Source: a virus. From it: 64,000 nt of DNA. The stretch lies in the IMG/VR virus record IMGVR_UViG_3300042564_004221, positions 35,790-99,789 of that record; one strand, 5' to 3'. Below are positions 33,411 through 63,998 of the stretch, piece by piece. The position numbers were made by a program, and so were the translations under genes. The notes beneath the pieces are model-generated. The model did not search any database, had not been told where the DNA came from, and was given only the letters and a program-made list of their open reading frames with translations. Every line of letters begins with the position of its first letter. The first letter of the stretch is position 1.

Positions 33411-33723
33411 AATAATAGAAATAGTTTGTTAAAGATGTTTTATAATCTTGTAATGAAGGTAGTAGAGGATAAGGAATAATCAATACCGCACCATCATATA
33501 TGTTATTCTCTAAACCTCCAAATTCGGGGTTTGCTTGTAATATTAACCATCCAAAATAAGGTGAGTTGTAGAACTCTTGAGAAACAACATCTAATCTACT
33601 TCTAGCAACTTTATAGATATAAGTTTTGTCAGTTGTTTTTTGTGGTAATTGTACAAAAGGTACTACAGTTTGTTCACCGTTAATTAAGAAGTCACTATAT
33701 CTATTCCAATATTGATATGCCAT
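33400..33723 (-). CDS. LysM-like baseplate protein (gp53/tail X-like)
   Basis: RLDVVSQEFYNSPYFGWLILQANP...GAVLIIP. Confidence 0.75.
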   Translation of the reverse strand: MAYQYWNRYSDFLINGEQTVVPFVQLPQKTTDKTYIYKVARSRLDVVSQEFYNSPYFGWLILQANPEFGGLENNIYDGAVLIIPYPLLPSLQDYKTSLTNYFYYYGR

Positions 33724-36700: not shown

Positions 36701-38765
36701 CTGGCCTTCCAATAAAATCACTTTGATTCCAATTGGGGGTTACAGTTTCGCTAAAAACTAATCCGTATGGTGGGAACCACATAACTCTACCGCCATTAGG
36801 TCCTCTTTCACAAACAGGTAAATCAGATACCGCAAAACCAGGCGTGTTTGAGGTTACCCAAGCTAAATTCTCAATTGAGAACATATATTTTTTAGCGTAA
36901 GCGGTATCATAACTTCCAATTAAATTGGTTGAATCTTGTCCTCCTTCTTGTTTGTTTGGTGCAATATTAAGGTTATATGTTTTATCTAATACTGAATATG
37001 AGAATCTTCTACCTTCTGTAACAACTCCATCTTGTTTTTGTAAGTCATTATATTGTAAATAAGGAGTATCTTTAGCAAATACTCTACAATATTCAGTTCC
37101 AACTTCTTGTCCAATAGAACCAACATAACTTAATACTCTTGAACCTTTGGTTATTTCTTTATAACCATCGTGGAATACTTTACTAACTTGGTCAATTGCA
37201 TTACCAACGTGTTGTAATCTTTTACCTCCTTCAGGTTGACTATTAATAATTCTTTGAGTATCATCTAAGATTGAACCTTCTTTAAAAGTTCTTTCAGTTG
37301 ACTCTGTTGTATTGTATGATGATGGTTTAAAATCAGAATCTTCTCCAGTAATTTCTCCACCAACACCTACCTTCTTTCCTGCATTACCTTTGTATTTTGG
37401 TGAAACCCATGTGAAACCACCTTCAATACCACCACCATTACTATAGGTAGGACCATTAGCACCTAAACGAATATCCTTACTTGGACCTTCATATAATTGA
37501 GCTAATTCGTGTGGACCATAAACAGGTGATTGTTGTTCATTACCAAACGCATCAACAGGTAATGCTCTACTTGGAGAGAATACTCTTGACGGGTCAGATG
37601 ATATTGAACCAACATAAAAATTAGAATTATTTGTACTTGTACCAACAATTGCTCCACCTAATCTATCAAGTAATGTTCTATCATAATCAGGTTTGTATTT
37701 GTTGTAATTTATGTTTTTCCATAAAATAGATTTTTGACCTTGACCTGTATTATTATAAAATATTTGAGAACCTGTCTTACCCGCACCTAATAATTTATTT
37801 ACGAAATTACCTACAGCTGAAAGCGGATTAGCCAACAAAGATTGTTGTATTGTCGTTGGTGAAGGAGGATTAATATTAGGGTCAAAATATGAACCAGGTA
37901 TTAATGAAAACGGAATAACACTACCACCTAATCTAAGTAAGAAGTCGGCGGATGCGGTTATTGGATTTGAAGGTACTGTAATCTGATAGTTAGGTTCGAT
38001 TAACGGAACCCTACCTGTTAAAATGTTAGTAACATTAGTACTACTATTAACATTTAATATATTTGCTCGTCCAAGTGTTCGTCTTAATGTTTCTCTACCA
38101 ATTCTATCTTCAAATTCTTTTTTAAGTGTCTTTGCACCTAATCTTGCTATAAAGGAATCACTACTTAATAATCCATTACTACCCGTTGGGTCTGGATTTA
38201 ATAAAATTGATAATGGAGTATATGATGAAGAATTAAATGTTGTTGGGTAAGGTTGGGAAGTATATAAATTTCTTGTACCTCCAGGAATTGAATTTGAAAC
38301 TACGTCTAATTGGTCAAAAAATATACCAGCATCTAAATCTATTAAATTAGCATTTGAACCTTGACTACCAATTGGACCATAAACATTAAGACCTAAATAT
38401 GGACGAACGTTATTACCCCATCCAACAAATGCTGACCTGTTAGCTTGGTTTATAATATAGGCATCTTGTTGACCTGGTCCATATTCACCTTGATTTGAAA
38501 ATGCGTTAGTTAATCCATTTGGGTCTGGAACTTGTTTAAATCCCCCATCCGAACCCCATCTATTTAATGGATATAAACCATTTGCAAATGTTGGGTTATC
38601 TATTAATCCATCAGGACTATCAATAACCGCTAAGTCGGATTGAATTACCTCATATGTGATTGGGGGCGTAGCTTTATATGGAGATTTAGCATATGGTACC
38701 AAATTTCTTGTTATAAGTTTTTTTCTAAAAACTTCGCTGCTAATATAATCTAACGGACTTGCCAT
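33723..38765 (-). CDS. Large tail-tube initiator/baseplate protein containing an OmpA-like domain
   Basis: 1680 aa after the tape measure; FSETVTPNWNQSDFIGRPEPIYTYKNTSRSGSLTW is tube-initiator-like; YFDND...YNIALSGRR...LGE...CRR is OmpA_C-like. Confidence 0.65.
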   Translation of the reverse strand: MASPLDYISSEVFRKKLITRNLVPYAKSPYKATPPITYEVIQSDLAVIDSPDGLIDNPTFANGLYPLNRWGSDGGFKQVPDPNGLTNAFSNQGEYGPGQQDAYIINQANRSAFVGWGNNVRPYLGLNVYGPIGSQGSNANLIDLDAGIFFDQLDVVSNSIPGGTRNLYTSQPYPTTFNSSSYTPLSILLNPDPTGSNGLLSSDSFIARLGAKTLKKEFEDRIGRETLRRTLGRANILNVNSSTNVTNILTGRVPLIEPNYQITVPSNPITASADFLLRLGGSVIPFSLIPGSYFDPNINPPSPTTIQQSLLANPLSAVGNFVNKLLGAGKTGSQIFYNNTGQGQKSILWKNINYNKYKPDYDRTLLDRLGGAIVGTSTNNSNFYVGSISSDPSRVFSPSRALPVDAFGNEQQSPVYGPHELAQLYEGPSKDIRLGANGPTYSNGGGIEGGFTWVSPKYKGNAGKKVGVGGEITGEDSDFKPSSYNTTESTERTFKEGSILDDTQRIINSQPEGGKRLQHVGNAIDQVSKVFHDGYKEITKGSRVLSYVGSIGQEVGTEYCRVFAKDTPYLQYNDLQKQDGVVTEGRRFSYSVLDKTYNLNIAPNKQEGGQDSTNLIGSYDTAYAKKYMFSIENLAWVTSNTPGFAVSDLPVCERGPNGGRVMWFPPYGLVFSETVTPNWNQSDFIGRPEPIYTYKNTSRSGSLTWKIVVDHPSVLNVIVNKVLGNETNKVRIDSILESFFAGCRKYDLYELAKKYYTISPNDLFQLQQAITSKELTKEQIEYSLKGLDNSAQVSSDGESINTIFNGYEQMGLYFDNDIPAKTSVDYDSLYDIYVSEQTKTYYKDQSPNTAEQTTSFFDSVIIPNKKKFGELIDEIDKQLTNNLTGIITIVINANASAAATNEYNIALSGRRIDSAITFITGNTKLTKYVTGTPQRLIVKVGGALGESAQPLSYDTKTTEFFPKKVVTCTDSDSQKKSKEIYTTNAMACRRAFIDTIDFYSPPAPIIPPKLVGTVVTTTETQNTLETQVVSRDNISKRVLRSLLSECDYFETIKQDTPMVYDNLRDKLKFFQPAFHSITPEGLNSRLTFLQQCMRPGDTIPTVKTVNGKITNDYENATNTSFGAPPVLVLRVGDFYNTKIIPKGLTLAYEDLDLNPEGIGVQPMIANVTLSFDFVGGSGLKESVDRLQNALTFNYYANTEMYDDRADATDLSYKVIDKDFLKYAIENGVQPPTLNQAAVQNGQNNNSTIGAVTSNIASGTSQTGTINYNIFMDKVVEETQTYFTNVVNKNKEALSQYNNAVRQQWMMERTYQDGEFLQTKATDTVLFGKPYNLEKRTDEIFTQLIEDIENENEGFIEFLKENKNDFTNRLINQVKDNYLNFVKNKKSVFQNAVTNIANGMVAVQQSYIGYIGRVNTITYTVPAYPGTGTDGYQIKDGKVVSYLISGTTEVNPSSEGVTNTFDELKNDVGVISSGITDFNTIIWSATSFVYKGTGFTGTLVFKEPNTVKTKDVFIPFSKNSLFGDTNKGRIFRRVYMIISDNITDATKYATFKDALIKNVIDNSDLFNKADNKYISKKFDEYWKDGNKDRVAVKPVFDEENAITKDFIENVMEKDRLKTFLKYTPFTLKKKRTFTYTTVGANTDSQQKLIKGLGATANQNTNNKTWNDENSTDVFISKAKLN

Positions 38766-38812: not shown

Positions 38813-40642
38813 TTATTTTTGTTCTAAGGCCTTTGCAGTATCTTCGTAATATTTGTAAATCATTTTTTTAAAAGCAGGAGTTTCAAAATATTCAGTAAAT
38901 TGTTGTTGACTAACTCCAGCAGGTGCTTCAACCTTAATAGTAATAGTTCCACCAAAATCAATTTGAGAATTAACACTTTTTGAATTACTTGTTGTTGGTT
39001 CAGAACTATTAGGTTTATTTGACTTAAATACACTTTCATAAGATATTGGTTCAATTTTTCCTGTATTAGATTTGGTTGTTTCAACCTTTGAATTTACACT
39101 ATCTATTGAATCCACAATCTCTTTAGCCATTTCTCTATATTCTTTTTCGATACCACTTGTTCCTGTAACTTTTTTTGCACTTTTTTCAATCATATCTTTA
39201 AGAGTTTCTAAACCTTTTGAACCTAATCCAGTTGCTTTATCTTTAATATCCTTTTCAATTGATTCTAATTTCTTAGTAAAAGTCGCATTATCAATTTTAC
39301 CACTATCTTTTGATATGTATAAATCACGTATTTTATCAATACCTGCAGTTAATGTTTCTGCAATTTTTTTACTTTCAGGTACTTTACTATTAATTGCACC
39401 TGAAATTGATGTTGCGATTCTTCCTGCTCCTCTAACATTACCTTCAATATATTTTGAAGACGCAACACCGAAGGTTCCTTTAGCTGCAATTGATTTTACA
39501 TCCGCAACAAGTATATCTAAATCCGCCAATTGACTTCTTTGAATATCTTCAACTGTTTTTGGAGCATCTCTTTGTTGTTTAATTAATTCATCAAATTCTT
39601 CTTGATTAAGGTTTTGTAGTTCTTTTGTAACACCATCTTTCAATTCCACTTCATATTTACCACCTTTACCCATTTTGGCAATATTTGCTAAATATTGTTT
39701 ATCTTCCTCATTTTCAAACTTTAATCCCGCCATACTAACATCAGATAATCTTTTATCTAATTCTGCAGCTGCTAATCCCATTTTACTCATTTCCTTAGCA
39801 CTAACACCTGTTTGGTCTTCCATCGCTTTTAAGGTTAAAACGCCTTGTGGATTTATTTTAAATGAATTTGTTTCCTCGTCAAAATATGTAAATTGTTTTG
39901 CAACTTCAGATAAACTTGTTTGTAATCCAGATGGGTCATTAATTGAGGCATTCATTAAAGCAAATGGGTCAGTTAAATTACCAACTGAAACACCTAATCT
40001 TTGAAATGCCGCTGCCGTCTCAATTGCCCCTTCAGGGTCTAAAACTTTATCTGCTAAAGTAAAAGTTTGTTGCATATCAAACCTTAACATAGATGCTTGA
40101 GCCGCCATCTTAGTTAAACCAGCGACACCTCCTTCAAATTGAAAACGATTCATTTGACCCATATTATAGGTAACATCTTTCATTACCGTATTAGCATTCA
40201 TTCCAACACTTCTAATATAGTCAATTGAAGTTTCTATATTTGGTCCAATTTGAGATGTTTCATACCCTACGTCAGCAAAGTTACTAACTAAATCTCTTGC
40301 ACTTGTACCCAATATTTTGGAAGATGCGTATAGTTTACTAACTTGTTCTTCAGTTGCAATAACATTTCTTCTTGAACCTTCAGCAATACCCGCAATTGTT
40401 TCAGAAACGTTACCAATTTCCCCTCCTAATCTAAGAACACCAGCTGCTGCGTTTGCCACAGCTCTGTCCATTTCTTGTAGTCTTGTCTTCCCATCAACAA
40501 ATGCCCGATTAAGTGAATCGGCCTGTGTAATCATATCATCCAATGATTTTATTATCTTCTCAATTGGGCTAGTCCAACTGTCTAATTCACTTTTGAGTTT
40601 ATTAGCAGAATCGGCTGAGTCGTCTAAACTTAATTGCTCCAT
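38813..40642 (-). CDS. Tape measure protein
   Basis: 609-aa helical Ala/Lys/Glu-rich protein after tube and chaperone genes. Confidence 0.65.
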   Translation of the reverse strand: MEQLSLDDSADSANKLKSELDSWTSPIEKIIKSLDDMITQADSLNRAFVDGKTRLQEMDRAVANAAAGVLRLGGEIGNVSETIAGIAEGSRRNVIATEEQVSKLYASSKILGTSARDLVSNFADVGYETSQIGPNIETSIDYIRSVGMNANTVMKDVTYNMGQMNRFQFEGGVAGLTKMAAQASMLRFDMQQTFTLADKVLDPEGAIETAAAFQRLGVSVGNLTDPFALMNASINDPSGLQTSLSEVAKQFTYFDEETNSFKINPQGVLTLKAMEDQTGVSAKEMSKMGLAAAELDKRLSDVSMAGLKFENEEDKQYLANIAKMGKGGKYEVELKDGVTKELQNLNQEEFDELIKQQRDAPKTVEDIQRSQLADLDILVADVKSIAAKGTFGVASSKYIEGNVRGAGRIATSISGAINSKVPESKKIAETLTAGIDKIRDLYISKDSGKIDNATFTKKLESIEKDIKDKATGLGSKGLETLKDMIEKSAKKVTGTSGIEKEYREMAKEIVDSIDSVNSKVETTKSNTGKIEPISYESVFKSNKPNSSEPTTSNSKSVNSQIDFGGTITIKVEAPAGVSQQQFTEYFETPAFKKMIYKYYEDTAKALEQK

Positions 40643-40696: not shown

Positions 40697-40864
40697 ATTG
40701 TCTTCAATCCATTTATCAAGTAAATATTTTCTAATAAAAATAGGCATTCTTTCAAAATCTTGATATGTTATTTTCATTAATGTGTTCAGGTAGTAAAATT
40801 CATCTACCTGTCCCTTTCTATAATCAGAAGAAAGGGCGAAAAAAGTCCACCCCGAATCCAACAT
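40685..40864 (-). CDS. Small tail-chaperone second ORF (lambda gpT-like extension), overlapping the chaperone 3' end in the +1 frame
   Basis: Not in track; ...FFALSSDYRKGQVDEFYYLNTLMKITYQDFERMPIFIRKYLLDKWIEDNKKD*; fills the chaperone-to-TMP gap. Confidence 0.65.
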   Translation of the reverse strand: MLDSGWTFFALSSDYRKGQVDEFYYLNTLMKITYQDFERMPIFIRKYLLDKWIEDNKKD

Positions 40865-41567
40865 TTACTGTTAGACGTTCTCCTGACGGGGCTTGTAAAG
40901 TTTTAGTCATATCTAATCTTGGTTCATTTTCATTCATAAAATTTCTAATAAATTTTGAATCTGAAATTGGCATTGATTCAACAAATTTTGCAATCTTTGC
41001 CTTATCAGTTGACCCATCAACCTCAACAATCTCTCTTTCCATTCTCCAAGTAATTTTTGGAACAACTCTACCTGCAGGGTATGAATCGGCTAATTTACTA
41101 ATTGATAAAATTTCGCCATAATTTAAAGGTTTTATTTTAATAGTCGATTGTGATTTTGGTAAAATAACCGTAAAAGTTCCATCTTCATTTGGTTGTTGAC
41201 CATTAACAATACTTAATTGGTCTAACATTACTGAAGTTTTAAATGGTTTTTTAGTTCCAGGGTCAGTCAAATTTAAGGACATTTCAGGTCCAAACGCTGT
41301 ATTTCTTAAAAAAATTAAGATTGCTTCAACATCACCTTCAATAAGTTCTTCAACTTTAATATCAGGTTCATAAATTTTTGCACGTAATAAATTAAGTGTT
41401 AAATCACTACCACCGCCCATTAGAATGTTTTCATCTGAAGCAGTTAAATATCCTACTTTAATTGATTTTTTTTTGTTTTTGTAGAAAATACCTTGAGATG
41501 GTAAAGGTACCACATCATGTGGTAATGTAAAATTTTGTTGACCGTAGTCTATTGATTGTGTTTCCAT
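40824..41567 (-). CDS. Tail/baseplate assembly chaperone (T4 gp26-like)
   Basis: VPLPSQG...YLTASDENIL...GDVEAILIFLR...FG; ends GVDFFRPFF; lies between tube and TMP. Confidence 0.75.
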   Translation of the reverse strand: METQSIDYGQQNFTLPHDVVPLPSQGIFYKNKKKSIKVGYLTASDENILMGGGSDLTLNLLRAKIYEPDIKVEELIEGDVEAILIFLRNTAFGPEMSLNLTDPGTKKPFKTSVMLDQLSIVNGQQPNEDGTFTVILPKSQSTIKIKPLNYGEILSISKLADSYPAGRVVPKITWRMEREIVEVDGSTDKAKIAKFVESMPISDSKFIRNFMNENEPRLDMTKTLQAPSGERLTVNVGFGVDFFRPFF

Positions 41568-51069: not shown

Positions 51070-52608
51070 ATGAAAAAAACACAAGAAAAAATTCAACAAC
51101 TTGAAAAACAAATTCTCACAGAACAAGCGAATCAAGAGAAAGAGTTGTTGATTACAGAAATGAAAAGAATTGGAATAGAGAAATTACCTTATTCCTACGC
51201 AGCCCTCAAACAATTTATTAATGCAGAGACAATGGACATCCATTATAATATGCATTATAAAGGTTATGTTAAAAAACTAAATGACGCTTTAGCAAAGAAA
51301 AAATACGGGGATTTAGATTTAGAAAAAATAATTAAAACCATTGGTCGTTTTGATAAAACAATAAGAAACAACGCGGGTGGAGCGTTTAATCACGCATTGT
51401 TTTGGAATATGTTAACACCAACACCAAAAAAATTGGAGGGTGACCTTTACAAGAAGATTACAAAACAATGGGGAACTTTCTCAGGGTTTAAAAAAGAATT
51501 TGAAAAGATTGCAAAAGACAGATTTGGTTCAGGTTGGGTATGGTTAGTTTTAACTGCAAAAAATACACTTAAAATTATGTCAACTCCAAACCAAGATAAT
51601 CCGTTGATGAATGTTATTCAAGGCGGTGGATTTCCGTTATTAGGTTTGGACTTATGGGAACATGCTTATTATTTGAAGTATCGAAATAAAAGAGACGAAT
51701 ACATTAAAAACTTTTGGAAAGTTGTTAATTGGGATTTTGTTACTAAAATGTATGAAATGAAAACTGAAACAAAATTAAATGAATCGGTTAATCTACAGAA
51801 TATTATCACCGAATCCACACACGTTAGATTTTGTGATGCTCAAGAAGTGAAAGCATATAAGGACTTAATTAATGATTCAAAAACAAAAAAAATATATCAA
51901 GAGGGTATTACCAAGGTCTTAAGAAAAGTTTTTAATCAATTTTGGGTTGAGGGTAATTCAAAAGAAATGTCAGGTTTCTATGGTGTGGAAACAAGAGAAG
52001 GTAGGTCTGTATTAAATAATCTTAATACAAACTTTAATACATTTTGTCTATTAGTTAGGGCGGTTAATAAAGAAATTATGAGAATTAATAGACCCGAAAA
52101 AATCTTTAAATTTTATGATAAAGAAAAAAGAACGGCTAAAGAAGTTAATAGATTTATAACTGCATTAGATTTTTTCAGTAAAGAAATTTTTACAAAAAGG
52201 AATGACGATTTTATTAACATCATTAAAGTACTTAAGAAATTATGGGATAGAGGTCAAAAATCTGAAGATGATGTTTATGTTAAAATTGAAGAATACTTTA
52301 AAGGAAATGCCAAAGTAACTAAGATTGGTGGTCACGGACAAAAAGAAGACGCATTAAAGGGTATAGATTTGATTGTTAATTTGGGGGGTATTCTACATAC
52401 ATCTCAAGTTAAACCATTCTCAAGTTTTGTAAAAACAGAAGAAATTATTGAAATGTTGGATACAGGAAACGTTAAACACTATAGTGTTGATTGGTTAATA
52501 TTCATCAACCCAAAGACAAATAATGTTATGATTTTTGAAAACAAACCTATTAGTGAAAAAAACCAATACGTTTTTAAACTTGAATCGTTATTATACGAAA
52601 TAAAATAA
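51070..52608 (+). CDS. sodA: Mn/Fe superoxide dismutase fused to a C-terminal PD-(D/E)xK-like domain
   Basis: HYNMHY, NAGGAFNHALFW, FGSGWVWL, NQD, DLWEHAYY; ~280 extra C-terminal residues. Confidence 0.85.
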   Translation: MKKTQEKIQQLEKQILTEQANQEKELLITEMKRIGIEKLPYSYAALKQFINAETMDIHYNMHYKGYVKKLNDALAKKKYGDLDLEKIIKTIGRFDKTIRNNAGGAFNHALFWNMLTPTPKKLEGDLYKKITKQWGTFSGFKKEFEKIAKDRFGSGWVWLVLTAKNTLKIMSTPNQDNPLMNVIQGGGFPLLGLDLWEHAYYLKYRNKRDEYIKNFWKVVNWDFVTKMYEMKTETKLNESVNLQNIITESTHVRFCDAQEVKAYKDLINDSKTKKIYQEGITKVLRKVFNQFWVEGNSKEMSGFYGVETREGRSVLNNLNTNFNTFCLLVRAVNKEIMRINRPEKIFKFYDKEKRTAKEVNRFITALDFFSKEIFTKRNDDFINIIKVLKKLWDRGQKSEDDVYVKIEEYFKGNAKVTKIGGHGQKEDALKGIDLIVNLGGILHTSQVKPFSSFVKTEEIIEMLDTGNVKHYSVDWLIFINPKTNNVMIFENKPISEKNQYVFKLESLLYEIK

Positions 52609-53754: not shown

Positions 53755-54090
53755 ATGTCAATAATAAGAACAGTACCCTCAACAAGGTTAATTAACGGAC
53801 AAATATTGGAAACATCTGAAATGGCAATCATTTCAGAAACAGAATACAAAACAAATGGTGAAGATTGTATCATTGTAAGAAATGTATTAAAATCCACCAT
53901 TACTTTAAATTCACATACTACTGACCATATTGTAATAAAATCAATGACTAATGTCACAATAAAACCTGATATTGGTAAAATCGACGAAGACTATGATGAA
54001 ATCGTTGCGGATAGATACACTTGTATTGAATTTAGATTTTGTGCTGGTAATTGGTATGTAATATCATCAGACGGTCTCAAGAACGCCTAA
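53755..54090 (+). CDS. Small beta-rich hypothetical structural protein
   Basis: 111-aa ORF directly after the neck gene. Confidence 0.55.
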   Translation: MSIIRTVPSTRLINGQILETSEMAIISETEYKTNGEDCIIVRNVLKSTITLNSHTTDHIVIKSMTNVTIKPDIGKIDEDYDEIVADRYTCIEFRFCAGNWYVISSDGLKNA

Positions 54091-56796
54091 TTTTTCTTCC
54101 CAACCCTCTTCAGCTAATTCATACATATAGTCAGGTTTTAAACCTCTCTTACCCCAATACGACATTTCAGCGTCAGTAATTGTTAATACATCCTCCAATT
54201 TATCTTGGTCTGAATCTTCAAATGGCATTCCATTTATTAACTCACATTGTGCCGTAGTAAATAAACCCCTATCTTCAGGAACATTAACGATTAACGCTTC
54301 CCTCACTTCACTCTTGAAACAAACCAATAATGGTTCAATTCTTTTATTGAATGTGGTAATTGCTCTTGGAACATTATAATCACCCGTTAAGTTGGGGTCA
54401 TTATCCAAAATGTCTTTATCTAACATATAACAATTAATTTGAACTCCATCACCTTTCTTTTGAACATCTCCGTGAGATGCTCTAAGTCCATTGTTAACAT
54501 ACATAATAACATCACCCAAACTCACATTTAGATTGTTTTGTAATGCAAGTTCCATGTGAGCCATTCTACTCATACTATTACCTGACTTAGTTTTCTCACT
54601 TAAACGTTTCTTATAATCTTCCATACTTAATTTAACTTTAGCTCTTTGAGCAATCTTACTTAACGGAATTTGTTTATCAAAAATTCTTTGTATGTATTCA
54701 TAATAATATTCCACAAATGATTTACCGTCACCTTCAAGTAACATCTTAATACCTTTATCCAAGAACTCCTCAATATACAATGGAAGTTTCTTTGACTTGA
54801 TACTATTACCTGTTAGTTTGATTTTACCTTTAGCATCCATAACCGCGTAGTTCTTACGAGCCAAGTTAATACAAGACGGCCAAACACCATCGGTATCAAG
54901 TGCCATCTCACCTCTCATAAAGATATCGTTATACTCTGCAACATCGGCTTCAGGTCCGTAATATTCTTTACCTAACTTAACCTTCCAATTTAAACCACGA
55001 CCAACATATACCCTATCCTTTGCATCTGGCGGAGTTGAGAAGTTCACACCATCCGTATCCATAACCAATGGAACATATCCTTTGGTCATAAAGAATTTAA
55101 TCATTTGACGAAGATATTGTCTACCAGTACAAGTAATCTGTTCTCCCATATACATATCACCCCAAGCATATACCTGCGGGGCAGATAACGCACCGAACAT
55201 ACTATTGATAAAGATTTTAATCGGTAATTGTTTATTACCATATGACTCAGATTTCTTTTTATCTATTTCGTAATATTCCTCGGCAAGTTGTTTGTATTTG
55301 ATACGGGTATCACGGAACCACTTTAACATTCCTTTCATTGCTCCTGTTACATCACAATCAGGAAATACATCGTGTACAAGCTGAATGGAGGGGTATAGAG
55401 ACGAAAAGTCCAACTTAAGAACGTCTTTAGAGTAACCAACCTTAAGTAGTCGTGAGAGACCTCCTACGAAGTCAGTCTTATCTTGTTTTGCAGGAATAGC
55501 TAAACCATTTTTATATGACCAAGCTAGCATCAACATCTTCCATAATGTTGCGGTTCCCATTGTTGAAACCCTTTCGTATGTTGTTGGAATCATCGCGGCC
55601 AACAAAAACGAACCTTGATTGAACTCTTGGTCAACCTTTAGGGTTTCATCTAAGTCATCGTCAAGATACATCTCAACCAATTTATCACCACCAATCTTTG
55701 AATAAACATCCAATCGTTTACCACAAGCCTCATCAATAGTAACATCAGCGCCTACCTTCTTATAGTTACCATTTTTAGTATTTAACCAAAAATCTTCTTT
55801 CTTAGTGTAGAATGGTCCAATATCTAAGTGGTCAATGTAAACTCGGTCAGGTGCTTCAGCGTTAATATATTTGGTAATGTATTTCAAACCAGCACCTTTA
55901 ATACTTGAATTGATTGCTTGTGCTCTACGAACCGCATGGATAATATCAATTACATTATAACCCCAAATTGAAGTCTGAGTAAATTTCTCAACCTCGTTTG
56001 CAAGTTTTAACATACTATCTTTTCGTGTGAATGAATGGTTGGGGTGCAATGACTTACAAATCTTCTTTGGGTCAATCTTTAGTATTCTACATCTTTCAAA
56101 TATCCAATGCCAGTCAAAGTTCGCTGAATTGTATCCACCAATAATACTTGGTTTCAATTCGTCAATCACTCGGAAAAATTCAATAATCGCGTTCTTCTCT
56201 TCGGCTTCGTCCACACACTCAATAACTCTGTGATAACCTTTATTGGTTTTAATTCCAATCATAAAGATACGACCGTCTGCAGGTTCAAGAGCGGTCGTCT
56301 CTAAGTCATATACAAGTCTGGTTACCTCGTTATAGTTTTCAAATCCTTTAAATAATCTTTTTTCTTTTGAGATAAGGTATTGCTCAACAGGTGGAAGAAT
56401 CATCACCAATCCTTTTGTTTTCTCACCCCAAGGGTCACAACCACCATCTCTAAAGAACTGAATGAGTTCTCTATAACCTTTTAAAGATTTAACCATAAAG
56501 GTCATACCTTTTTCTAATCTTTCGTTTCCGTGTGTTTCTAATTTGTCAATTACAATTCCATGCTTTGTCATAGCCTCCTTTTGTGCTGACTTGGAATTTT
56601 TATAAAAGTTGATTCCGTGTAAGTCACCTACCCAAGCGAATGGTGTAAACGTATCCTTACGGATTTCTTTTCCCTTACCAGGAATCTCTTTAATTTTGTA
56701 AATGGAGTTGGATGCGTAGTCAAATTCTATTGCTACGATAAATTCTTCGGGGTCATTCCCATGCAAGAACGATTCAATTTCTTCGTTAGATATCAT
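54067..56796 (-). CDS. polB: Family B DNA polymerase with 3'-5' exonuclease
   Basis: DLET, YNSANFDW, DFSSLYPS, KIFINSMFG, MDTDG, KNYA; likely start ATG 56796. Confidence 0.95.
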   Translation of the reverse strand: MISNEEIESFLHGNDPEEFIVAIEFDYASNSIYKIKEIPGKGKEIRKDTFTPFAWVGDLHGINFYKNSKSAQKEAMTKHGIVIDKLETHGNERLEKGMTFMVKSLKGYRELIQFFRDGGCDPWGEKTKGLVMILPPVEQYLISKEKRLFKGFENYNEVTRLVYDLETTALEPADGRIFMIGIKTNKGYHRVIECVDEAEEKNAIIEFFRVIDELKPSIIGGYNSANFDWHWIFERCRILKIDPKKICKSLHPNHSFTRKDSMLKLANEVEKFTQTSIWGYNVIDIIHAVRRAQAINSSIKGAGLKYITKYINAEAPDRVYIDHLDIGPFYTKKEDFWLNTKNGNYKKVGADVTIDEACGKRLDVYSKIGGDKLVEMYLDDDLDETLKVDQEFNQGSFLLAAMIPTTYERVSTMGTATLWKMLMLAWSYKNGLAIPAKQDKTDFVGGLSRLLKVGYSKDVLKLDFSSLYPSIQLVHDVFPDCDVTGAMKGMLKWFRDTRIKYKQLAEEYYEIDKKKSESYGNKQLPIKIFINSMFGALSAPQVYAWGDMYMGEQITCTGRQYLRQMIKFFMTKGYVPLVMDTDGVNFSTPPDAKDRVYVGRGLNWKVKLGKEYYGPEADVAEYNDIFMRGEMALDTDGVWPSCINLARKNYAVMDAKGKIKLTGNSIKSKKLPLYIEEFLDKGIKMLLEGDGKSFVEYYYEYIQRIFDKQIPLSKIAQRAKVKLSMEDYKKRLSEKTKSGNSMSRMAHMELALQNNLNVSLGDVIMYVNNGLRASHGDVQKKGDGVQINCYMLDKDILDNDPNLTGDYNVPRAITTFNKRIEPLLVCFKSEVREALIVNVPEDRGLFTTAQCELINGMPFEDSDQDKLEDVLTITDAEMSYWGKRGLKPDYMYELAEEGWEEKLGVLETV

Positions 56797-56883
56797 ATGT
56801 TGTATAGTTGGTTTATTAGCTTTCACACTATCGTGAAATTTACCTTCTATGTTAAATATAATCTAAAAAACTGAATAATCAAA

Positions 56884-57331: not shown

Positions 57332-57484
57332 ATGAAACCAAGAAAAAAAGAAGAAGATAAAAAAATTAAATTTGCGATTAGTTTAGACCCTAAATTATTT
57401 AAACGAATGGAAGATGATATTACTAATAAATCAGGGCTTATTGAAAAATTACTTAGAGAACACTATGGAAAAAAAGATTTGTAG
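57332..57484 (+). CDS. 50-aa ribbon-helix-helix-like protein
   Basis: Not in track; KIKFAISLDPKLFKRMEDDITNKSGLIEKLLREHY; overlaps the HNH start. Confidence 0.65.
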   Translation: MKPRKKEEDKKIKFAISLDPKLFKRMEDDITNKSGLIEKLLREHYGKKDL

Positions 57485-58010
57485 TAAATGTAAGATTGAA
57501 AAAGATGTTTGTGAGTTTAATACCCGAAAAAATAGAAAAGGTATTATAATTTTAAGAGGATATTGTAAAAAATGCCATACAATTATGTCGGTTAATTTTA
57601 GTTTAAAAAACCCTAAAAAAACCAAACAATATAGAGATACTTGGTACAAGAATAACTCTAAAATTTTAGTAGAAAAAAATAAAAAAAGGAGAAATTCTGA
57701 TTTATTATATAAATTAAGAATTGGAATTAGAACAAGATTAAAAATGACATTAAAGAATAATTCTTTCAAGGGTAAAACTATTGAAATATTAGGTATGGAT
57801 ATTAATTCATTTAAGATTTATATTGAATCTAAATTTTTAAATGGAATGTCTTGGGATAATTATGGATTAAATGGATGGCATATAGACCATATAATTCCAT
57901 TGTGTTCCGCAAAAACTGAAGAAGAATTTTATAAACTTTGCCATTATACTAATCTTCAACCACTATGGGCTAAAGATAATTGGAAAAAAAGTAATAAAAT
58001 ATTGAATTAA
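57465..58010 (+). CDS. HNH-type free-standing (homing) endonuclease with N-terminal CxxC zinc module
   Basis: CSKC...CKKC; WHIDHIIP...CHYTNLQPLWAKDNWKK; likely start ATG 57465. Confidence 0.85.
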   Translation: MEKKICSKCKIEKDVCEFNTRKNRKGIIILRGYCKKCHTIMSVNFSLKNPKKTKQYRDTWYKNNSKILVEKNKKRRNSDLLYKLRIGIRTRLKMTLKNNSFKGKTIEILGMDINSFKIYIESKFLNGMSWDNYGLNGWHIDHIIPLCSAKTEEEFYKLCHYTNLQPLWAKDNWKKSNKILN

Positions 58011-59683
58011 CTTTCTTTACGTAATTCGGCAGAATAAAACTCAAAACGGTCATGTTCTGTTGGGGTTAACAACAAAAGTCCTGAATTAATGTTTCCTTTA
58101 ACAGTTTCTTGATAACAATACGACATAAGAGTTTGTTCAAAGGGATGTGCCCACTTAGTCTCTAAATAACATTTATAATTTCCGTTTTTAGTTAAAATAA
58201 TTGGCCAATTACATAAATAAATTTCACCATCAATATACGATAATCCTTGGTGTGTTTTTATGGATTTGAATTTGGTTCTTGGAGCATTTGGGTCTAAACC
58301 TTGTACAGGTAATGATGGTTTTTCGGGAAATAACTCCCTTCTTTTGTCTTGAGGCAAGTTGTACCAACTCCACTGCGTACCATTATCACCATAAAATTCA
58401 GTATAATTTAACTTTAAAAAATCAAAATTTTCTTGTTTCATTATTGATAGTGTTTTTGAATATAAGTTAGGAACAAACCTATTAAAACCATTTTTACATA
58501 CTTCACCTTTTTTAGGGTAAAATGACATATCATCTTCAAACCAATAATAGAAATCTAAACCTGTCTCATCAAAATGTTCCGCAACAAATACTCTACCACC
58601 AACAATTCCAATATTATCTTTCTTAATATGTTCAAAACCATATTCTTCACAAAGTTCTTGATATCTTGGTGTTGTTGATAAATCAGTTGAATTATCTAAT
58701 AAAAACTTTTTTGGTTTAATAATAAAATCTTTATCGTATTCTAACATTGATTGTATTAGTGTTTCAAATTGATTTGGACTATTAAATGTAATAACATATA
58801 ATCCCACCTTATTAGTATCCAAATTATTAAGTATAACTTCTTTAGTACCTTCCGACTTAACAACTAGTTCATCATTCTTTAAATCCTCAAAAAACTTACC
58901 AAATAAACCATTTGACTCAATCTCAAAGTAGTTAATCAAATCTGAGTGGGTATAACACATAATACTAAAAATTGATTCTTCAGTACCCATATATCCACTT
59001 TCTAATGTTGTCTTTAGGAAATTATAATAAATTCCGTTGATATCACTTATTGTGTGTTTTGGTCCACCAAAGAATCCTCCTCTTGCAACTTTATCTACTT
59101 TAGCACCTGCAATTGAGTTCATTTTATTAATTTCAAATCCGTGTATTTCGGTATTTGCTTCGTATGGAAAACAAACAAACGAAAACTTTGAAATGTATTT
59201 TGGTAATTTTTCTAATACCTTATCATGAGTAAAATATCCAGGATGAACAGTATTAGTTAATCCCGCATCAATCCAAAACATCATCTCTGAATTGAATTGG
59301 TCCATAATTCTGGCATCATTTAGTAAAAACATTTTAGACATTACTAAAGGATTATACATATCCAATTTTGCTTGAGTTGATTCAGGTAACCATCCCGCAA
59401 GATTATACCATTCAGGATTATTTCTTATTTCTTGAATTTTATTATAAAAGTCATTATTTTTAAACCAGTCTTGACTACGAGCAATGAATTGAGTGTTTTC
59501 GCGACTTCTTCTTTCAAATACAAAAGATTCTAAATCGGAATCACCAAAAATAATCATTGGGTTCTCAACTTGTAATAGTTGTTCAAATTTATCTAAATAA
59601 TGTTGAAATGAACGAGACCAACCTTCAGTTAGTTTATCTCTTTTAATGTTCCAAAGTCCTGTGACTAATGTTATTTTACTCAT
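58007..59683 (-). CDS. HtrL/YibB-like glycosyltransferase fused to a GT2-like domain
   Basis: TLVTGLWNI, SKMFLL, WIDAG, GGFFGG, GTEES; second domain VITFN...LDNS...WFEDD. Confidence 0.75.
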   Translation of the reverse strand: MSKITLVTGLWNIKRDKLTEGWSRSFQHYLDKFEQLLQVENPMIIFGDSDLESFVFERRSRENTQFIARSQDWFKNNDFYNKIQEIRNNPEWYNLAGWLPESTQAKLDMYNPLVMSKMFLLNDARIMDQFNSEMMFWIDAGLTNTVHPGYFTHDKVLEKLPKYISKFSFVCFPYEANTEIHGFEINKMNSIAGAKVDKVARGGFFGGPKHTISDINGIYYNFLKTTLESGYMGTEESIFSIMCYTHSDLINYFEIESNGLFGKFFEDLKNDELVVKSEGTKEVILNNLDTNKVGLYVITFNSPNQFETLIQSMLEYDKDFIIKPKKFLLDNSTDLSTTPRYQELCEEYGFEHIKKDNIGIVGGRVFVAEHFDETGLDFYYWFEDDMSFYPKKGEVCKNGFNRFVPNLYSKTLSIMKQENFDFLKLNYTEFYGDNGTQWSWYNLPQDKRRELFPEKPSLPVQGLDPNAPRTKFKSIKTHQGLSYIDGEIYLCNWPIILTKNGNYKCYLETKWAHPFEQTLMSYCYQETVKGNINSGLLLLTPTEHDRFEFYSAELRKES

Positions 59684-60566
59684 ATGTCCTATTTATTTCT
59701 TCTAAAATTTTATAAAAACTTTTATTTATTCTTGTATGTTCGGCCATATCTGTACCAGCAACCCTTTCATCTTCATGCCACCAAATATCAAAGTGTTTAC
59801 GCTCAAATAATTCTTTATGGTTATAATACATTAATGTCATAACACTTTCTTCATGAGGTAAACCCTTATCTTCGGTAATAACATTTTTGGTATAATCTTC
59901 AAACAAAGTTACAATTTCATCCCACTTATCTTTATGACCACCAAATAAACCACCAATAATATGAATACCTCTTTCCCAATTCGAATACCATTTAGGGTCT
60001 AATGTACCCGACCAATAATTTCTGTCATTTTCTTTACCGATAATTAAAAATTTATCACCTGTATCTTCTATTAAATTTGTTAGAAAATTATTATTAAATA
60101 ATGTTGATTCGTAATATCTTTGTTCGGGATGAGTACCAACTAAATACTTGTTAGGGATTAATCCACAATGTGATAATCCTGCATCAATCCAGTAATAATA
60201 ATCATAAGACTTATCTTCATTCCACCACCAATGAAATTTACTATATTGAACCTCAATACATCTATCGGATTTTTTAGTCGTTTCAATATCTTTATGTTGA
60301 TTTATTAAATCCTTAAATTTTGTATTGGAAATATCAAATACTTGAAGTTTTAATTTATCTGGTGACACATTATGTATTTCATAAAAAAACGTAATTAATG
60401 ATGGTAATTCCCTATCCGATGTATAACATAGAAAATCGGCATCTGTAATTTTTAAAAGGGATAATAAACTATACCTATAATGACCTCCTCTACCGACTCT
60501 ACCACCAAATTCGGTACCGTTCAAATCACTATAAATTGACGTAATAAATTTAACTTTAGTTGTCAT
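59676..60566 (-). CDS. HtrL/YibB-like glycosyltransferase
   Basis: YSK, YWIDAG, GGLFGG, HEES; paralogous to the N-terminal half of the adjacent gene. Confidence 0.7.
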   Translation of the reverse strand: MTTKVKFITSIYSDLNGTEFGGRVGRGGHYRYSLLSLLKITDADFLCYTSDRELPSLITFFYEIHNVSPDKLKLQVFDISNTKFKDLINQHKDIETTKKSDRCIEVQYSKFHWWWNEDKSYDYYYWIDAGLSHCGLIPNKYLVGTHPEQRYYESTLFNNNFLTNLIEDTGDKFLIIGKENDRNYWSGTLDPKWYSNWERGIHIIGGLFGGHKDKWDEIVTLFEDYTKNVITEDKGLPHEESVMTLMYYNHKELFERKHFDIWWHEDERVAGTDMAEHTRINKSFYKILEEINRTYE

Positions 60567-61290
60567 AATTAAAATTTTTGTGTTGATTGTTAATTTTTAA
60601 TTCATTGGTTAGTGTTCCGTTTAAATATCCTGAAGGTATTTTACAAGGACTATATAAATTCCAATTATATGTTTGAGTATAAAAATTATTATAATCTCCG
60701 TGTGACACATCAGACCAATTACTCATTTGAGGTGCTATTGGTAGTAACGGCACATAACTTTGTTTAATTGATATGACAAATTGTGAAATGTATTCATCAA
60801 TTGCATAATAACCCAAATTCTCAGGTTTTTCTATTTCTAATACATTATCATAAATTGATTTATGATAAATAATCATATTTGTTGCATAAATACCTCTATG
60901 GTGTTCCTCTTTTGGTGGGAGATTTGTTATATCTAAAAATAATGGTTGTGTTTCACTACGATTAACAGGTCTGTTTAGTGTTGGTGCCAAATTTATAATT
61001 CCAAACTCAAAATCACCCGATTCGGTTTCAATCTTATTTATTAAATCTTTGGAATAAGGTAAGAAGGTACAATCATCCTCAATAACCATAACCGATTCAT
61101 ATCCTCTCTCCTTTGCAATTTTTATAACCTCAACGTGAGATAAAGTACACCCCCCATGATTATTTAAATCAATTGCCTTAAATAATTCATATTCCCAACC
61201 AATATACTCCATTTCTTTTTTAATGTGTTCTAATCTATCAGGTCTCCTTTCAAGATTCACAACAAATTTTGGGATGTTTGTAATATTCAT
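60556..61290 (-). CDS. Glycosyltransferase family 25-like
   Basis: VVNLERRPDR, GCTLSH, VMVIEDD. Confidence 0.85.
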   Translation of the reverse strand: MNITNIPKFVVNLERRPDRLEHIKKEMEYIGWEYELFKAIDLNNHGGCTLSHVEVIKIAKERGYESVMVIEDDCTFLPYSKDLINKIETESGDFEFGIINLAPTLNRPVNRSETQPLFLDITNLPPKEEHHRGIYATNMIIYHKSIYDNVLEIEKPENLGYYAIDEYISQFVISIKQSYVPLLPIAPQMSNWSDVSHGDYNNFYTQTYNWNLYSPCKIPSGYLNGTLTNELKINNQHKNFNYDN

Positions 61291-62558
61291 TAGCTAACCA
61301 TATTGTGACTTAATTGTCCTGTTATTCTATCACACCATCCTTTTGATTCTGAGAACGGCCAAACAACCCAATGAGTTGGCATTTCATCTGTTTGAAATTC
61401 TCTCCATACCTTGCAATAGTTATCAGGGTCTCTCATAAATCCAGCAATCTCATTTTTGTCTGCATCTTTACGGAATAAAGTTTTATCATCTTTACCGTGG
61501 AAGGCAACAACCCAAAACTCATAATCTGTTTCAGGAACCTGTGAATATCCAATATCAATACAATGTTTGAACATCATACAGAAACTATCTTTCCATTCTT
61601 TTTCAGTTTCAAAGTTATATGGATTTGGTGGGTAGTTCTTATCTAAAGTATATTTGTCAATTGCTCGTTTTTCAAAAAGAATACCCGAATACTTTTCATA
61701 ATCGGTTAAAGTTCTAACAGGACCAAAACCATAAGGACCATCGTGTCCTTCTTGTTTTTCACCATCCATACCAAATAACTTTCTATTTGTTAGGTGAGAG
61801 TGATTATTCTTTTGTCCCCAATCTTTATCAATATCCCATTGTTTTGTTCGACCTTTACGAGTATATTCGTGATAAAATATTGGAATATGTGGATGGAATA
61901 GGTCATAACCCCAAGTGTAAGCCCTAACCGCAATCGAAATCTCTTCTCCGTGAAAATAATATTCATTATTATGTTGAACTTCAGTTGAGAACTGTCCTAA
62001 TGTAAAACAGAAGTGAGCGGAATAAAATCTTGCTGTTACAGGTTTTTTAAGGTCCTTCCATCCTGGTATTGTTTCAGGTAAGAAGAACACCGCACCTTCA
62101 GGAATGAATCTATCAAAGACCATTCTCCAAGCGTCAGGAGCTCTTCCTGCTGGGTCATTATCAGGGTCAAAAGAAGGTACGTAACCTGTTAATAGAGGTT
62201 TTTTATATCCGTCTTTCTGTAACCCTTTTATCATTTTAATAAGAATAACATCCCAATCCTTAATAGTTCTCATATGACTATCAATTTGAAGGGTATATTC
62301 TTCACCTTTATAAAGTTGTTGAGTTAAGTTTCTTGCCCAACAAACACCTTTAGAATCCGTATGTGGAATATCTAAAATTCTAAATCTTTTATCATCTCTC
62401 CATTCATCAACATTATCAAAACCGTCTTCTGGATTAAATTGTCTTGCAATTGCAAATACAAGATTTTTTGGATATTTAGCATTCTCCAACATATCTTTAA
62501 TTGTTGGAACTAATTGTGGGTCACAAAATGATGCAATTTGGATAAATATTTTACTCAT
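61290..62558 (-). CDS. GT60-like polypeptide N-acetylglucosaminyltransferase (Pfam GlcNAc family)
   Basis: IFIQIASFCD, SKGVCWAR, LQIDSHMR (DxH), FHGEEI, GYDLFHP, HEY. Confidence 0.8.
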   Translation of the reverse strand: MSKIFIQIASFCDPQLVPTIKDMLENAKYPKNLVFAIARQFNPEDGFDNVDEWRDDKRFRILDIPHTDSKGVCWARNLTQQLYKGEEYTLQIDSHMRTIKDWDVILIKMIKGLQKDGYKKPLLTGYVPSFDPDNDPAGRAPDAWRMVFDRFIPEGAVFFLPETIPGWKDLKKPVTARFYSAHFCFTLGQFSTEVQHNNEYYFHGEEISIAVRAYTWGYDLFHPHIPIFYHEYTRKGRTKQWDIDKDWGQKNNHSHLTNRKLFGMDGEKQEGHDGPYGFGPVRTLTDYEKYSGILFEKRAIDKYTLDKNYPPNPYNFETEKEWKDSFCMMFKHCIDIGYSQVPETDYEFWVVAFHGKDDKTLFRKDADKNEIAGFMRDPDNYCKVWREFQTDEMPTHWVVWPFSESKGWCDRITGQLSHNMVS

Positions 62559-62584
62559 GATAGTATGTTTGTTTTGTAAAAAAT

Positions 62585-62613
62585 AAAAAACCCTCCATAA
62601 AAATGAAGGGTTT
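62585..62613 (-). terminator. Probable intrinsic terminator after the 98-aa gene
   Basis: AAACCCT/AGGGTTT stem plus T-run. Confidence 0.45.
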
Positions 62614-62643
62614 ATTGAAATATATGTGCAAGTTTTTGTTGTA

Positions 62644-62940
62644 TTATGGACGTGTTGGAGTTGGGGTTGGAGTTGTGGTTGAAGTTACTGTTGGGGTTGG
62701 GGTTACTGCTGCGGTTGGGGAAGGCGTTGGTGTTATTGGATACACTCCATCATTAACTAATACAACACTACTAACATATAATGGTGCTATTGAATATGTA
62801 TCATTTATTAACCAAATATTTTTGGTTTGATTTTGTGTTAATTCAACTTGGTATTCCCACATTGCATCATCACATCTTCTATAATTAAAGTTCACTATCG
62901 TTGAACCCGTATTCGTTAAAGTATATTTACTACATGCCAT
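62644..62940 (-). CDS. Small Cys-containing protein with C-terminal Thr/Pro tract
   Basis: 98 aa ending PITPTPSPTAAVTPTPTVTSTTTPTPTPTRP. Confidence 0.75.
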   Translation of the reverse strand: MACSKYTLTNTGSTIVNFNYRRCDDAMWEYQVELTQNQTKNIWLINDTYSIAPLYVSSVVLVNDGVYPITPTPSPTAAVTPTPTVTSTTTPTPTPTRP

Positions 62941-63062
62941 AATTTTAAATGTTTTTTATATAAATATCATCATTTTTGAAAATAAATTATATTTTTTTAT
63001 ATAGTTGTCGATTGTGATAATATTAAGAAGGTTAACATAATTTGTTTATAAACTATGATAGA

Positions 63063-63998
63063 TTATAATCCAAAACGACCTTTTAGTGCGTTATAGTTTT
63101 GTGTCACTTCAGCAGGTGATAATACCTTATTTGTGTAGAAAAAACAATTATATATAGCACCATTAAAAAGGTTAAGGGAAGGTGAATTATCTAATTTTAA
63201 TTGAGCTGTTTGACTTGTGTGTTGAACCGTTGAGCTTGTATTAATTGCTACTTGAGTTCCGTTTTCATATATAATTGACGTACTTGTATTAGGGTTATAT
63301 GTACAAGTTATGTTATATATTTGACCAACTACAGGGGCGACATTCCAATCTAATCTTTCACTAAGACCTGTTTCCCATCCAAACGAACTAGTCGTAAATG
63401 TAAGATTGATAAAATTAGAACCATTAAATGAAAATAATCCACCGTTAGTTTCGATAGAAGAAATTTCAAACCACATACTTAAAGAATATCCTTGAGGATA
63501 ACTTAATGTTATTGATGTAGATTGTGCGGTATCGTTAACTCCATCAAAATAAACTCCACCACCATTTGTACCACTATATACAGGTCCACCTAATAAAGCT
63601 AAGTCATATTCATTCCCACTCAAATCAGACCAAGTGGTTCCTGTTCTTGGATAAGACGGAACAAACCCACCATCCCACATTGCGGTTAGTCCACTAGTGA
63701 CAATATCTGGATAGTTAATATTGGTAACCATATAAGTAGAATTATCATTAAAATAATTCAATGCGTCGTAAATGGTGTTAATACCTGTTCCACCATATTG
63801 TGTTGCGATAGTTATTAATTCACTATCGTTTGACGCAAGTCTAATAGAAGGACCCTGAGAAGATTTTTGAGCGTAAACGGTATAACCATTTGAAGGAGGA
63901 CTTATACCATTCCAAAAACCTGTTGTAACAGTTGGTCCATAGTCTACAGACGTACTAACACCAATAAGAAAATCATTCTTTTTAAGGGTTCCTATTGA
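63063..63998 (-). CDS. Partial LamG/concanavalin A-like lectin-domain virion protein
   Basis: Frame is open from the window end; SYPRTGTTWSDLSGN, FDGVND, YENG, LSPAEVTQNYNALKGRFGL. Confidence 0.8.
   Translation of the reverse strand, partial: SIGTLKKNDFLIGVSTSVDYGPTVTTGFWNGISPPSNGYTVYAQKSSQGPSIRLASNDSELITIATQYGGTGINTIYDALNYFNDNSTYMVTNINYPDIVTSGLTAMWDGGFVPSYPRTGTTWSDLSGNEYDLALLGGPVYSGTNGGGVYFDGVNDTAQSTSITLSYPQGYSLSMWFEISSIETNGGLFSFNGSNFINLTFTTSSFGWETGLSERLDWNVAPVVGQIYNITCTYNPNTSTSIIYENGTQVAINTSSTVQHTSQTAQLKLDNSPSLNLFNGAIYNCFFYTNKVLSPAEVTQNYNALKGRFGL

Follow-up and report, generated by a model that had tools for sequence, protein, structure and literature searches.

What would a phage do with a run of glycosyltransferase (GT) genes set beside a gene for a protein that ends in a threonine/proline tail? 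The question is raised by a stretch of 64,000 nucleotides (positions 35,790–99,789 of IMG/VR record IMGVR_UViG_3300042564_004221; hereafter the window) that forms the final 64 kb of a 99.8-kb virus contig with a G+C content of about 31%. Because these 99.8 kb were rated 32% complete by CheckV, the contig is a fragment of an uncultured freshwater jumbo phage with a genome of roughly 300 kb; its genes include those for a baseplate wedge, ribonucleotide reductase, a DnaB-like helicase and a family-B DNA polymerase (PolB), as identified by Pfam and PHROG searches. Close to the end of the window lie four overlapping GT genes that encode five GT-A domains (58007–62558, minus strand; overlaps of 1, 11 and 8 nt), the first of which belongs to family GT60. 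We propose, with a probability of roughly 0.6, that the locus is a soluble, phage-encoded mucin-type protein O-glycosylation system that acts on Thr/Pro tracts: a candidate initiating polypeptide N-acetylhexosamine (HexNAc)-transferase and candidate acceptors with Ser/Thr/Pro-rich tandem repeats are both present, and they co-occur across lineages. To our knowledge, GT60 enzymes have been characterized only in protists, and, leaving aside mycobacteriophages and the giant viruses that infect eukaryotes, there are few documented cases of phages glycosylating their own virion proteins with enzymes of their own. A literature search for GT60 together with phage returned nothing relevant.

Five co-oriented open reading frames (ORFs), the four GT genes and the gene for a 98-aa protein (TP98), stand on the minus strand where a first-pass annotation had placed them, and the five GT-like domains that it had claimed are borne out by Pfam, by family-profile alignment and by a second GT-A domain in the 558-aa protein (Table 1). 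Profile and structure searches establish the 422-aa protein, previously called GT60-like, as a true member of GT60/PF11397 whose nearest solved folds are those of family GT27; it scored 200.9 bits with PF11397 (GlcNAc/GT60; cut-off 21, E = 5e-59), a match confirmed on the genome, and E = 5e-160 with PHROG 24687. The 244-aa protein matched PF01755 (E = 8e-14; 52.4 bits against a cut-off of 24), carries an acidic VIEDDC at residues 69–74, and found its best PDB sequence matches in mimivirus R655 and human procollagen galactosyltransferase 1. Residues 3–252 of the 558-aa protein matched PF09612 (HtrL_YibB; E = 4e-17, 63.3 bits against a cut-off of 24.1), while its score against the NCBIfam equivalog TIGR02192 was below the cut-off (71.4 versus 264.9); the protein is a member of the HtrL_YibB family but not a YibB orthologue. 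The 296-aa protein matched no Pfam model (E up to 10), that for HtrL_YibB included, and no NCBIfam model; the label 'HtrL-like' is justified because hhalign matched the profile of its family to the HtrL domain found in the 558-aa family (probability 98.75%, E = 1.5e-16). Nor did Pfam searches to E = 10 give a match for TP98, the last 116 aa of the GT60 protein or the C-terminal half of the 558-aa protein. Kyte–Doolittle profiles of the four GTs and TP98 contained neither transmembrane segments nor signal-peptide-like N termini (the highest 19-aa mean in the five proteins was 1.30), in agreement with the earlier view that the GTs lack a signal peptide or membrane anchor.

Neither single-sequence nor profile searches of the PDB yielded a usable match for the GT60 protein or the 558-aa dual transferase, and fold comparison alone was informative. 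We built an AlphaFold2 (AF2) model of the GT60 protein from 43 homologues (mean predicted local distance difference test score (pLDDT), 94.7) and compared it with the PDB using Foldseek and VIA-align. The top 29 PDB entries were all GT27 polypeptide GalNAc-transferases, with Z scores of 19.1–22.6 and root-mean-square deviations of 3.3–3.6 Å over 257–286 residues of the model, and generic GT-A enzymes followed the GT27 tier after a gap, at Z scores of 18.0 or less for the same model. E205, E206 and H230 are invariant among the 43 sequences, and D93-S94-H95, G204 and R212 are at least 90% conserved; these residues correspond to the DxH motif and to a Gal/GalNAc-T-like (GEE...R) motif. The DxH motif distinguishes GT27 and GT60, both of which carry out polypeptide Ser/Thr O-glycosylation (PMC7185993). 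Residues 306–422 yielded no Pfam match, and no ricin-type lectin domain was detected there. The AF2 model of the 558-aa protein (pLDDT 83.7) comprises two GT-A domains, and the best Foldseek matches of the whole model were LH3, mimivirus R699, COLGALT1, K4 chondroitin polymerase and LARGE1, with a further resemblance to heparosan synthase. In the model, residues 1–268 resemble GT6 retaining transferases (VIA Z about 13) and residues 287–558, which include an invariant EDD motif (E383-D384-D385), resemble B4GALNT1, POMGnT1 and GnT-I (VIA Z 14–15.4).

The contig also encodes candidate acceptors. Tracts of the form (TPTxT)n, the shortest 29 residues long and the longest above 80, occur in six of its long ORFs, and a Thr-Pro codon pattern matched the coding strand of the contig 84 times as against 9 times for the reversed control. 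The tracts already reported in the ORF at the window start and in the 780-aa protein are present, and three further tract ORFs lie upstream of the window. Two of the tract proteins contain SprB repeats, and the gene for the 780-aa protein lies downstream of the baseplate-wedge gene and of large co-oriented ORFs; among the large ORFs around it, PHROGs assigned a function to the baseplate wedge alone. TP98, which ends in ...TPTPSPTAAVTPTPTVTSTTTPTPTPTRP, has an N-terminal module that matched viral hypothetical clusters only, and it is a short form of a modular mucin-like protein family.

Table 1. Positions in the window of the genes and signals discussed (proposed roles are predictions).
Feature	Position	Strand	Basis or remark
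GT60 (PF11397), soluble, 422 aa, proposed initiating polypeptide O-HexNAc transferase	61290–62558	-	Pfam, PHROG, AF2; catalytic GT-A about residues 1–325, conserved beta-rich C-terminal part about 325–420
GT25-family glycosyltransferase, 244 aa, variable cassette	60556–61290	-	PF01755
Divergent HtrL-like glycosyltransferase, 296 aa, variable cassette	59676–60566	-	family-profile match
Dual GT-A transferase, 558 aa, HtrL_YibB domain (1–268) and GT2/GT12/GT13-like domain (287–558)	58007–59683	-	conserved GT60 partner
TP98, 98 aa, 68-aa conserved N-module (globular head) and 30-aa Thr/Pro tail, candidate acceptor	62644–62940	-	translation
SprB-repeat protein, 780 aa, 70-aa C-terminal Thr/Pro tract, candidate acceptor	664–3006	-	PF13573, E = 4e-28
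342-aa protein (C-terminal part in window), 86-aa Thr/Pro tract, candidate acceptor	2–316	-	genome coordinates 35077–36105
Terminator-like hairpin, 11-bp stem and T run	62588–62613	-	between TP98 and GT operon
TATTTAT(A) motif	62961–62967	-	27 nt upstream of the TP98 start codon; also precedes further structural and TP-tract genes
Baseplate wedge	15764–17602		same orientation as, and upstream of, the 664–3006 tract gene
ORF	10543–15672		preceded by TATTTATA
ORF	33723–38765		preceded by TATTTATA
ORF	38813–40642		preceded by TATTTATA
ORF	51070–52608		preceded by TATTTATA
DnaB	20250–21632		preceded by TTATATTTAA
ORF	40824–41567		preceded by TTATATTTAA
PolB	54067–56826		preceded by TTATATTTAA
Endonuclease VII-like gene	57414–58010	+	PHROG 1035; between dual GT and a 125-aa gene, on the opposite strand
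LamG/concanavalin-like protein	63063–63998	-	PHROG 'virion structural protein'; adjoins TP98 and runs off the contig end

The association of GT60 with Thr/Pro-tract genes, on which the first-pass annotation had built its proposal, recurs in most related phage loci, in the clade of Xanthomonas phage XacN1 and in bacteria of several phyla. A megablast search of the locus against cultured phages found no matches; at the protein level, GT60 was found in four cultured Xanthomonas/Stenotrophomonas jumbo phages (XacN1, Xoo-sp13, RAS14 and CM1; 42–46% identity). XacN1 and RAS14 keep the gene order of the window, GT60 being followed by the HtrL-like and then the dual-GT gene, with a carbamoyltransferase gene between; in XacN1, these are ORF334 (GT60, 44.6%), ORF332 (HtrL-like) and ORF330 (dual GT, 42.6%) (PMC5852040, Yoshikawa et al. 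2018). The 765-aa carbamoyltransferase lies between GT60 and the HtrL-like gene (XacN1 ORF333, L075:10415-12712; also L076:10518-12818), which suggests that the glycans of the Xanthomonas/Stenotrophomonas phages contain carbamoylated sugars. XacN1 differs in its distant backbone, in having the carbamoyltransferase instead of GT25 and in the absence of a Thr/Pro gene within 9 kb of GT60; at least 17 of its ORFs carry long Thr/Pro tracts. Of the few genes that the contig shares with XacN1, GT60 and the dual GT are by far the most conserved (43–45% identity, as against 22–38% for the rest). Purified XacN1 virions showed at least two glycoprotein bands that stained with periodic acid–Schiff (PAS), and those who described the phage proposed that phage GTs make them (PMC5852040). 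As GT60-negative controls we took six jumbo phages picked by similarity to the DNA polymerase of XacN1, which was used because the PolB of the window found only Salinibacter phages at 23–24% identity. Matches to the Thr-Pro pattern and to its reversed control numbered 245/6, 192/8, 133/12, 133/12, 85/3, 22/0, 95/10 and 84/9 in GT60-positive genomes, as against 0–7 matches versus 2–8 for the control in the six GT60-negative phages (RsoM2USA, Phosso, XbC2, Vibrio 2.275.O, pEa_SNUABM_47 and 121Q).

Comparison with 72 IMG/VR loci, close kin whose GT60 proteins are 60–91% identical to that of the window, separates a conserved core from a variable interior. In 58 of the 72, a cassette of 2–9 co-oriented genes, drawn from at least 50 gene clusters, lies between GT60 and the dual transferase; the latter accompanies GT60 in 65 of the 72. 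GT25 and the 296-aa HtrL-like gene, found in 29 and 41 of the 58 loci, respectively, form the commonest cassette combination, and other cassettes encode GT10 fucosyltransferase-like, PLOD-GT, GT2, GT7C and GT1 domains and FkbM/CmcI-type methyltransferases. These patterns point to GT60 and the 558-aa dual transferase as the conserved core and to GT25 and the 296-aa gene as a swappable cassette, and hence to a logic other than the order of initiation, extension and capping that had been proposed for the operon. No polytopic membrane protein was found among 222 cassette ORFs, and a single hydrophobic window occurred in one gene cluster only (2 ORFs); polytopic membrane segments are absent from these ORFs and from the four GTs, and the pathway does not require its own lipid carrier. 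A route through lipid-linked polysaccharide was judged unlikely on the same ground. Most of the close relatives for which the upstream flank is available carry, directly upstream of GT60, 1–3 genes that share a 68-aa head (MACSKYTLTNTG...), followed by a Thr/Pro/Gln (TP/TQ) tract of 100–700 aa and varied C-terminal domains (Lcl_C, LRR). In more distant loci (GT60 62–69% identical), a different Thr/Pro protein occupies the same position (L053, L055 and L072), and others have tracts elsewhere on the contig. Head-only forms of 70–71 aa also occur in tandem with full-length mucin-like paralogues (L028:2711-2926, L010:8574-8786, L003:8887-9102 and L022:6321-6533), and TP98, with its head and short tail, is intermediate between the head-only and full-length forms.

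Beyond phages, at least 563 GT60 relatives were present in species-representative genomes, of which the best 80 loci were examined. The density of tract ORFs was 8–10 per 100 kb within 4 kb of GT60 and 1–2.7 at 8–10 kb, a genuine but modest enrichment. The dual transferase adjoins GT60 in 27 of the 80 bacterial loci (Bacteroidota, Gemmatimonadota, Acidobacteriota, Myxococcota and Proteobacteria), and two Gemmatimonadaceae loci (L244 and L246) hold a TP-protein, GT60 and the dual GT as a compact, co-oriented three-gene unit. In a Lewinellaceae locus (L239; 610-kb contig), a tract protein is encoded divergently to GT60 and the dual transferase directly downstream of it; the spacing between tract protein and GT60 in these three loci is 50–250 bp. 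Four loci of Achromobacter, Paraburkholderia and Ralstonia (L273, L310, L311 and L291) encode proteins of 820–950 aa with long pure (TP)n runs on the opposite strand, 1–3.8 kb from GT60. In a quick maximum-likelihood IQ-TREE search, the GT60 of the window grouped with those of viral contigs and with Saprospiraceae, Lewinellaceae and Bacteroidia sequences, and the XacN1/RAS14 enzymes were sister to those of Burkholderiales. Because the GT60s of the two phage lineages fall in different bacterial clades, the tree suggests that they were acquired separately; on the basis of the same grouping, the host of the phage studied here is probably a member of the Bacteroidota, with which the SprB repeats in two tract proteins are consistent.

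Taking the enzyme families, folds, motifs, solubility, gene order and tract co-occurrence as established, we infer the acceptor, donor sugar, order of action and virion location as follows. The soluble GT60 would bind Mn2+ through its DxH motif and H230 and place the first sugar, most likely an alpha-linked HexNAc from a UDP-sugar, on the hydroxyl groups of Thr and Ser within the (TPTxT)n tracts of modular proteins that the phage itself encodes; the TP98 family, the 780-aa SprB-repeat protein and four more proteins of the contig are candidates for this role of acceptor. The dual transferase, with its GT6-like retaining and GT2/GT13-like inverting domains, would then add two further sugars or a repeating disaccharide, and the intervening genes (GT25 and the second HtrL-like enzyme) would decorate the chain. 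In relatives, the same slot is filled by fucosyl-, galactosyl- and PLOD-type transferases and FkbM/CmcI methyltransferases; because the contents of the cassette vary among relatives, the glycan structure would differ from phage to phage. The glycosylated tracts would form stiff, protease-resistant stalks that show variable adhesin-like end domains on the particle. A hydroxyproline-linked (Skp1/Gnt1-type) route was set aside as unlikely because no prolyl hydroxylase (P4H-type 2-oxoglutarate (2OG) oxygenase) was found in five GT60-positive genomes.

Transcription signals set the enzymes apart from their proposed substrates. The 98-aa gene is adjacent to the GT operon and directly upstream of it, as had been noted, and it lies outside the GT transcription unit because a strong terminator-like hairpin separates the two. 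Upstream regions are about 38-fold enriched in the 8-mer TATTTATA, which 9 of 34 contain at a distance of 13–51 nt (mostly 20–29 nt) from the start codon; TP98, further tract genes and large structural genes have it, and GT60 does not. A second motif, TTATATTTAA, precedes the DnaB and PolB genes and one further ORF, and the region upstream of GT60 resembles it. The two motifs possibly represent late and middle promoter classes, respectively. Because the GT60 upstream region resembles the DnaB/PolB motif and the tract and structural genes carry TATTTATA, the GT enzymes may be made before their proposed substrates.

Several points weigh against glycosylation of the tracts by this system. Thr/Pro tracts do not depend on GT60, because they occur in phages that lack it: 6 of 45 IMG/VR contigs picked by the TPTPTPTPT pattern alone hold a GT60, and all four near-complete contigs among those picked by tract are without one. 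Most bacterial GT60 loci have no tract nearby (a strict test gave 4 versus 0 of 33 fully covered loci), and the conserved synteny among the related phage loci is not independent evidence because these loci are close kin. XacN1 encodes another GT (ORF328, GT9), and the text of its report gives no protein identity to the PAS-positive bands (PMC5852040). Our placing of the tract proteins on the virion draws on neighbouring structural genes and adhesin-type domains, the HtrL and GT25 families are otherwise known from lipopolysaccharide/lipooligosaccharide (LPS/LOS) loci, and the operon is divided from TP98 by the terminator and lacks the TATTTATA motif of that gene.

The main remaining rival is that the operon glycosylates proteins other than the tracts (capsid or tail subunits, or host proteins), in which case the tracts would be plain flexible linkers and the adjacency a product of co-location in a hypervariable accessory region. 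The tracts of GT60-free phages would fit this explanation, as would the hairpin and the differing upstream motifs of TP98 and the operon and the glycosylated capsid and tail-tube proteins of mycobacteriophages (PMC12363180). We nevertheless consider it unlikely: of the genomes compared by pattern counts, the GT60-positive ones are tract-rich and the GT60-negative ones tract-free, tract proteins that are not homologous adjoin GT60 in distant phages and in several bacterial phyla, and characterized GT60 and GT27 enzymes act on Ser/Thr-rich mucin domains (PMC7185993, PMC8724618).

Still less probable is a role in remodelling a glycan of the host envelope (the LPS/LOS core or some other polysaccharide) in the course of infection, such as might block superinfection or aid release. 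HtrL_YibB and GT25 have been described from LPS/LOS biosynthesis loci, and a variable cassette between conserved genes is reminiscent of O-antigen and outer-core loci; yet the 222 cassette ORFs include no flippase, polymerase, priming phosphoglycosyl transferase or polytopic membrane protein, the fold of the lead enzyme is nearest to polypeptide transferases, and the same module is found in phages of unrelated hosts (Xanthomonas and Stenotrophomonas; here probably Bacteroidota). Remodelling of the host would also leave the tract association unexplained, and in XacN1 it is the virions themselves that bear glycoproteins (PMC5852040). Glycosylation of phage DNA (hypermodified bases) to evade restriction is very improbable, for although phage DNA glucosylation is well known and the operon lies between the structural genes and PolB/endonuclease VII, much as the GT60 neighbourhood of XacN1 is close to a DNA polymerase, no ThyA-like base hydroxymethylase (PF00303) was found in the contig (32% complete) or in two GT60-positive relatives (100% and 74% complete), a cassette of several enzymes, fucosyltransferases and sugar methyltransferases among them, would be atypical and too elaborate, and GT60 is a GT-A enzyme with a GT27-like peptide-transferase fold.

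Eukaryotes offer close parallels to the proposed tract-directed O-glycosylation. GT60 initiates mucin-type glycans in protists (PMC8724618), and the alpha-GlcNAc-transferases concerned (the mucin initiators of Trypanosoma cruzi, the Golgi pp-alphaGlcNAcT of the Dictyostelium modB pathway, and Gnt1, which acts on Skp1 hydroxyproline) share PF11397, the DxH motif and the GT27-like GT-A fold with the phage enzyme. Pfam detected no ricin-type lectin domain in the phage enzyme, and its candidate acceptors are likewise Thr/Pro-rich mucin-like repeats; fucosyltransferases in the cassettes of sister phages parallel the fucose capping of Dictyostelium (PMC8724618). Unlike the Golgi type II membrane proteins of protists, the phage enzyme is soluble, predicted to be cytoplasmic and paired with a dual GT-A enzyme and a swappable cassette, and it has an extra conserved beta-rich C-terminal domain of ~100 aa. 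The GT27 GalNAc-transferases of animals, the best structural match, have in common with it the DxH motif, a third His and, where the Gal/GalNAc-T motif lies, GEE...R; they differ in CAZy family and share just 10–14% sequence identity, and Pfam detected no ricin lectin domain in the phage enzyme.

Among viruses, the GTs of mycobacteriophages Che8, Corndog and Myrna modify the phages' own structural proteins (Freeman et al. 2023, as cited in PMC12363180). That source names capsid and tail-tube subunits as the targets and not long Thr/Pro tracts, and the hosts are Actinobacteria. In giant viruses, mimivirus R655 (GT25-like) and R699 (dual GT) and the capsid glycosylation of chloroviruses exemplify virus-encoded cytoplasmic glycosylation, a likeness at the level of fold and weak sequence similarity. 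The phage dual GT resembles R699, LH3 and COLGALT1, and enzymes of the LH3/COLGALT1 type glycosylate protein (collagen); no GT60 initiator was among the giant-virus matches, which came from searches not aimed at GT60 in those viruses.

A wider generalization is tentative, and we hold it at somewhat less than even odds: a protein with Thr/Pro repeats, a soluble initiator of family GT60 and an extender with two GT-A domains may constitute a widespread prokaryotic, cytoplasmic mucin-type module without lipid carriers, which phages would have captured on two or more occasions from bacteria belonging to the lineages of their hosts and into which a hypervariable tailoring cassette would have been inserted between the core enzymes. 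The fibre-like proteins of each strain would thus be differently glycan-coated, a counterpart to the diversification of receptor-binding proteins. If the proposal is correct, mucin-like glycoproteins are made by abundant freshwater jumbo phages, cultured Xanthomonas/Stenotrophomonas phages and many bacteria alike, through soluble enzymes that could be assayed as a set in Escherichia coli, a prokaryotic model for the start of mucin-type O-glycosylation would be at hand, and the many Thr/Pro 'linkers' in phage fibre proteins would be accounted for. The variability of the cassette suggests glycan diversity as a new dimension of phage–host or phage–grazer interaction, and the glycans could affect phage stability and host-range studies. 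XacN1, for which proteomics data are deposited (PXD008065), offers a ready experimental system.

Two neighbouring genes deserve mention. On the far side of TP98, the LamG/concanavalin-like gene is cut by the contig end (Table 1). At the other end of the operon, the endonuclease VII-like gene is found at this position in some but not all related loci (L004, L008, L012 and L044 are examples; 38–54% identity), a patchy distribution as expected of a mobile or homing-type insertion.

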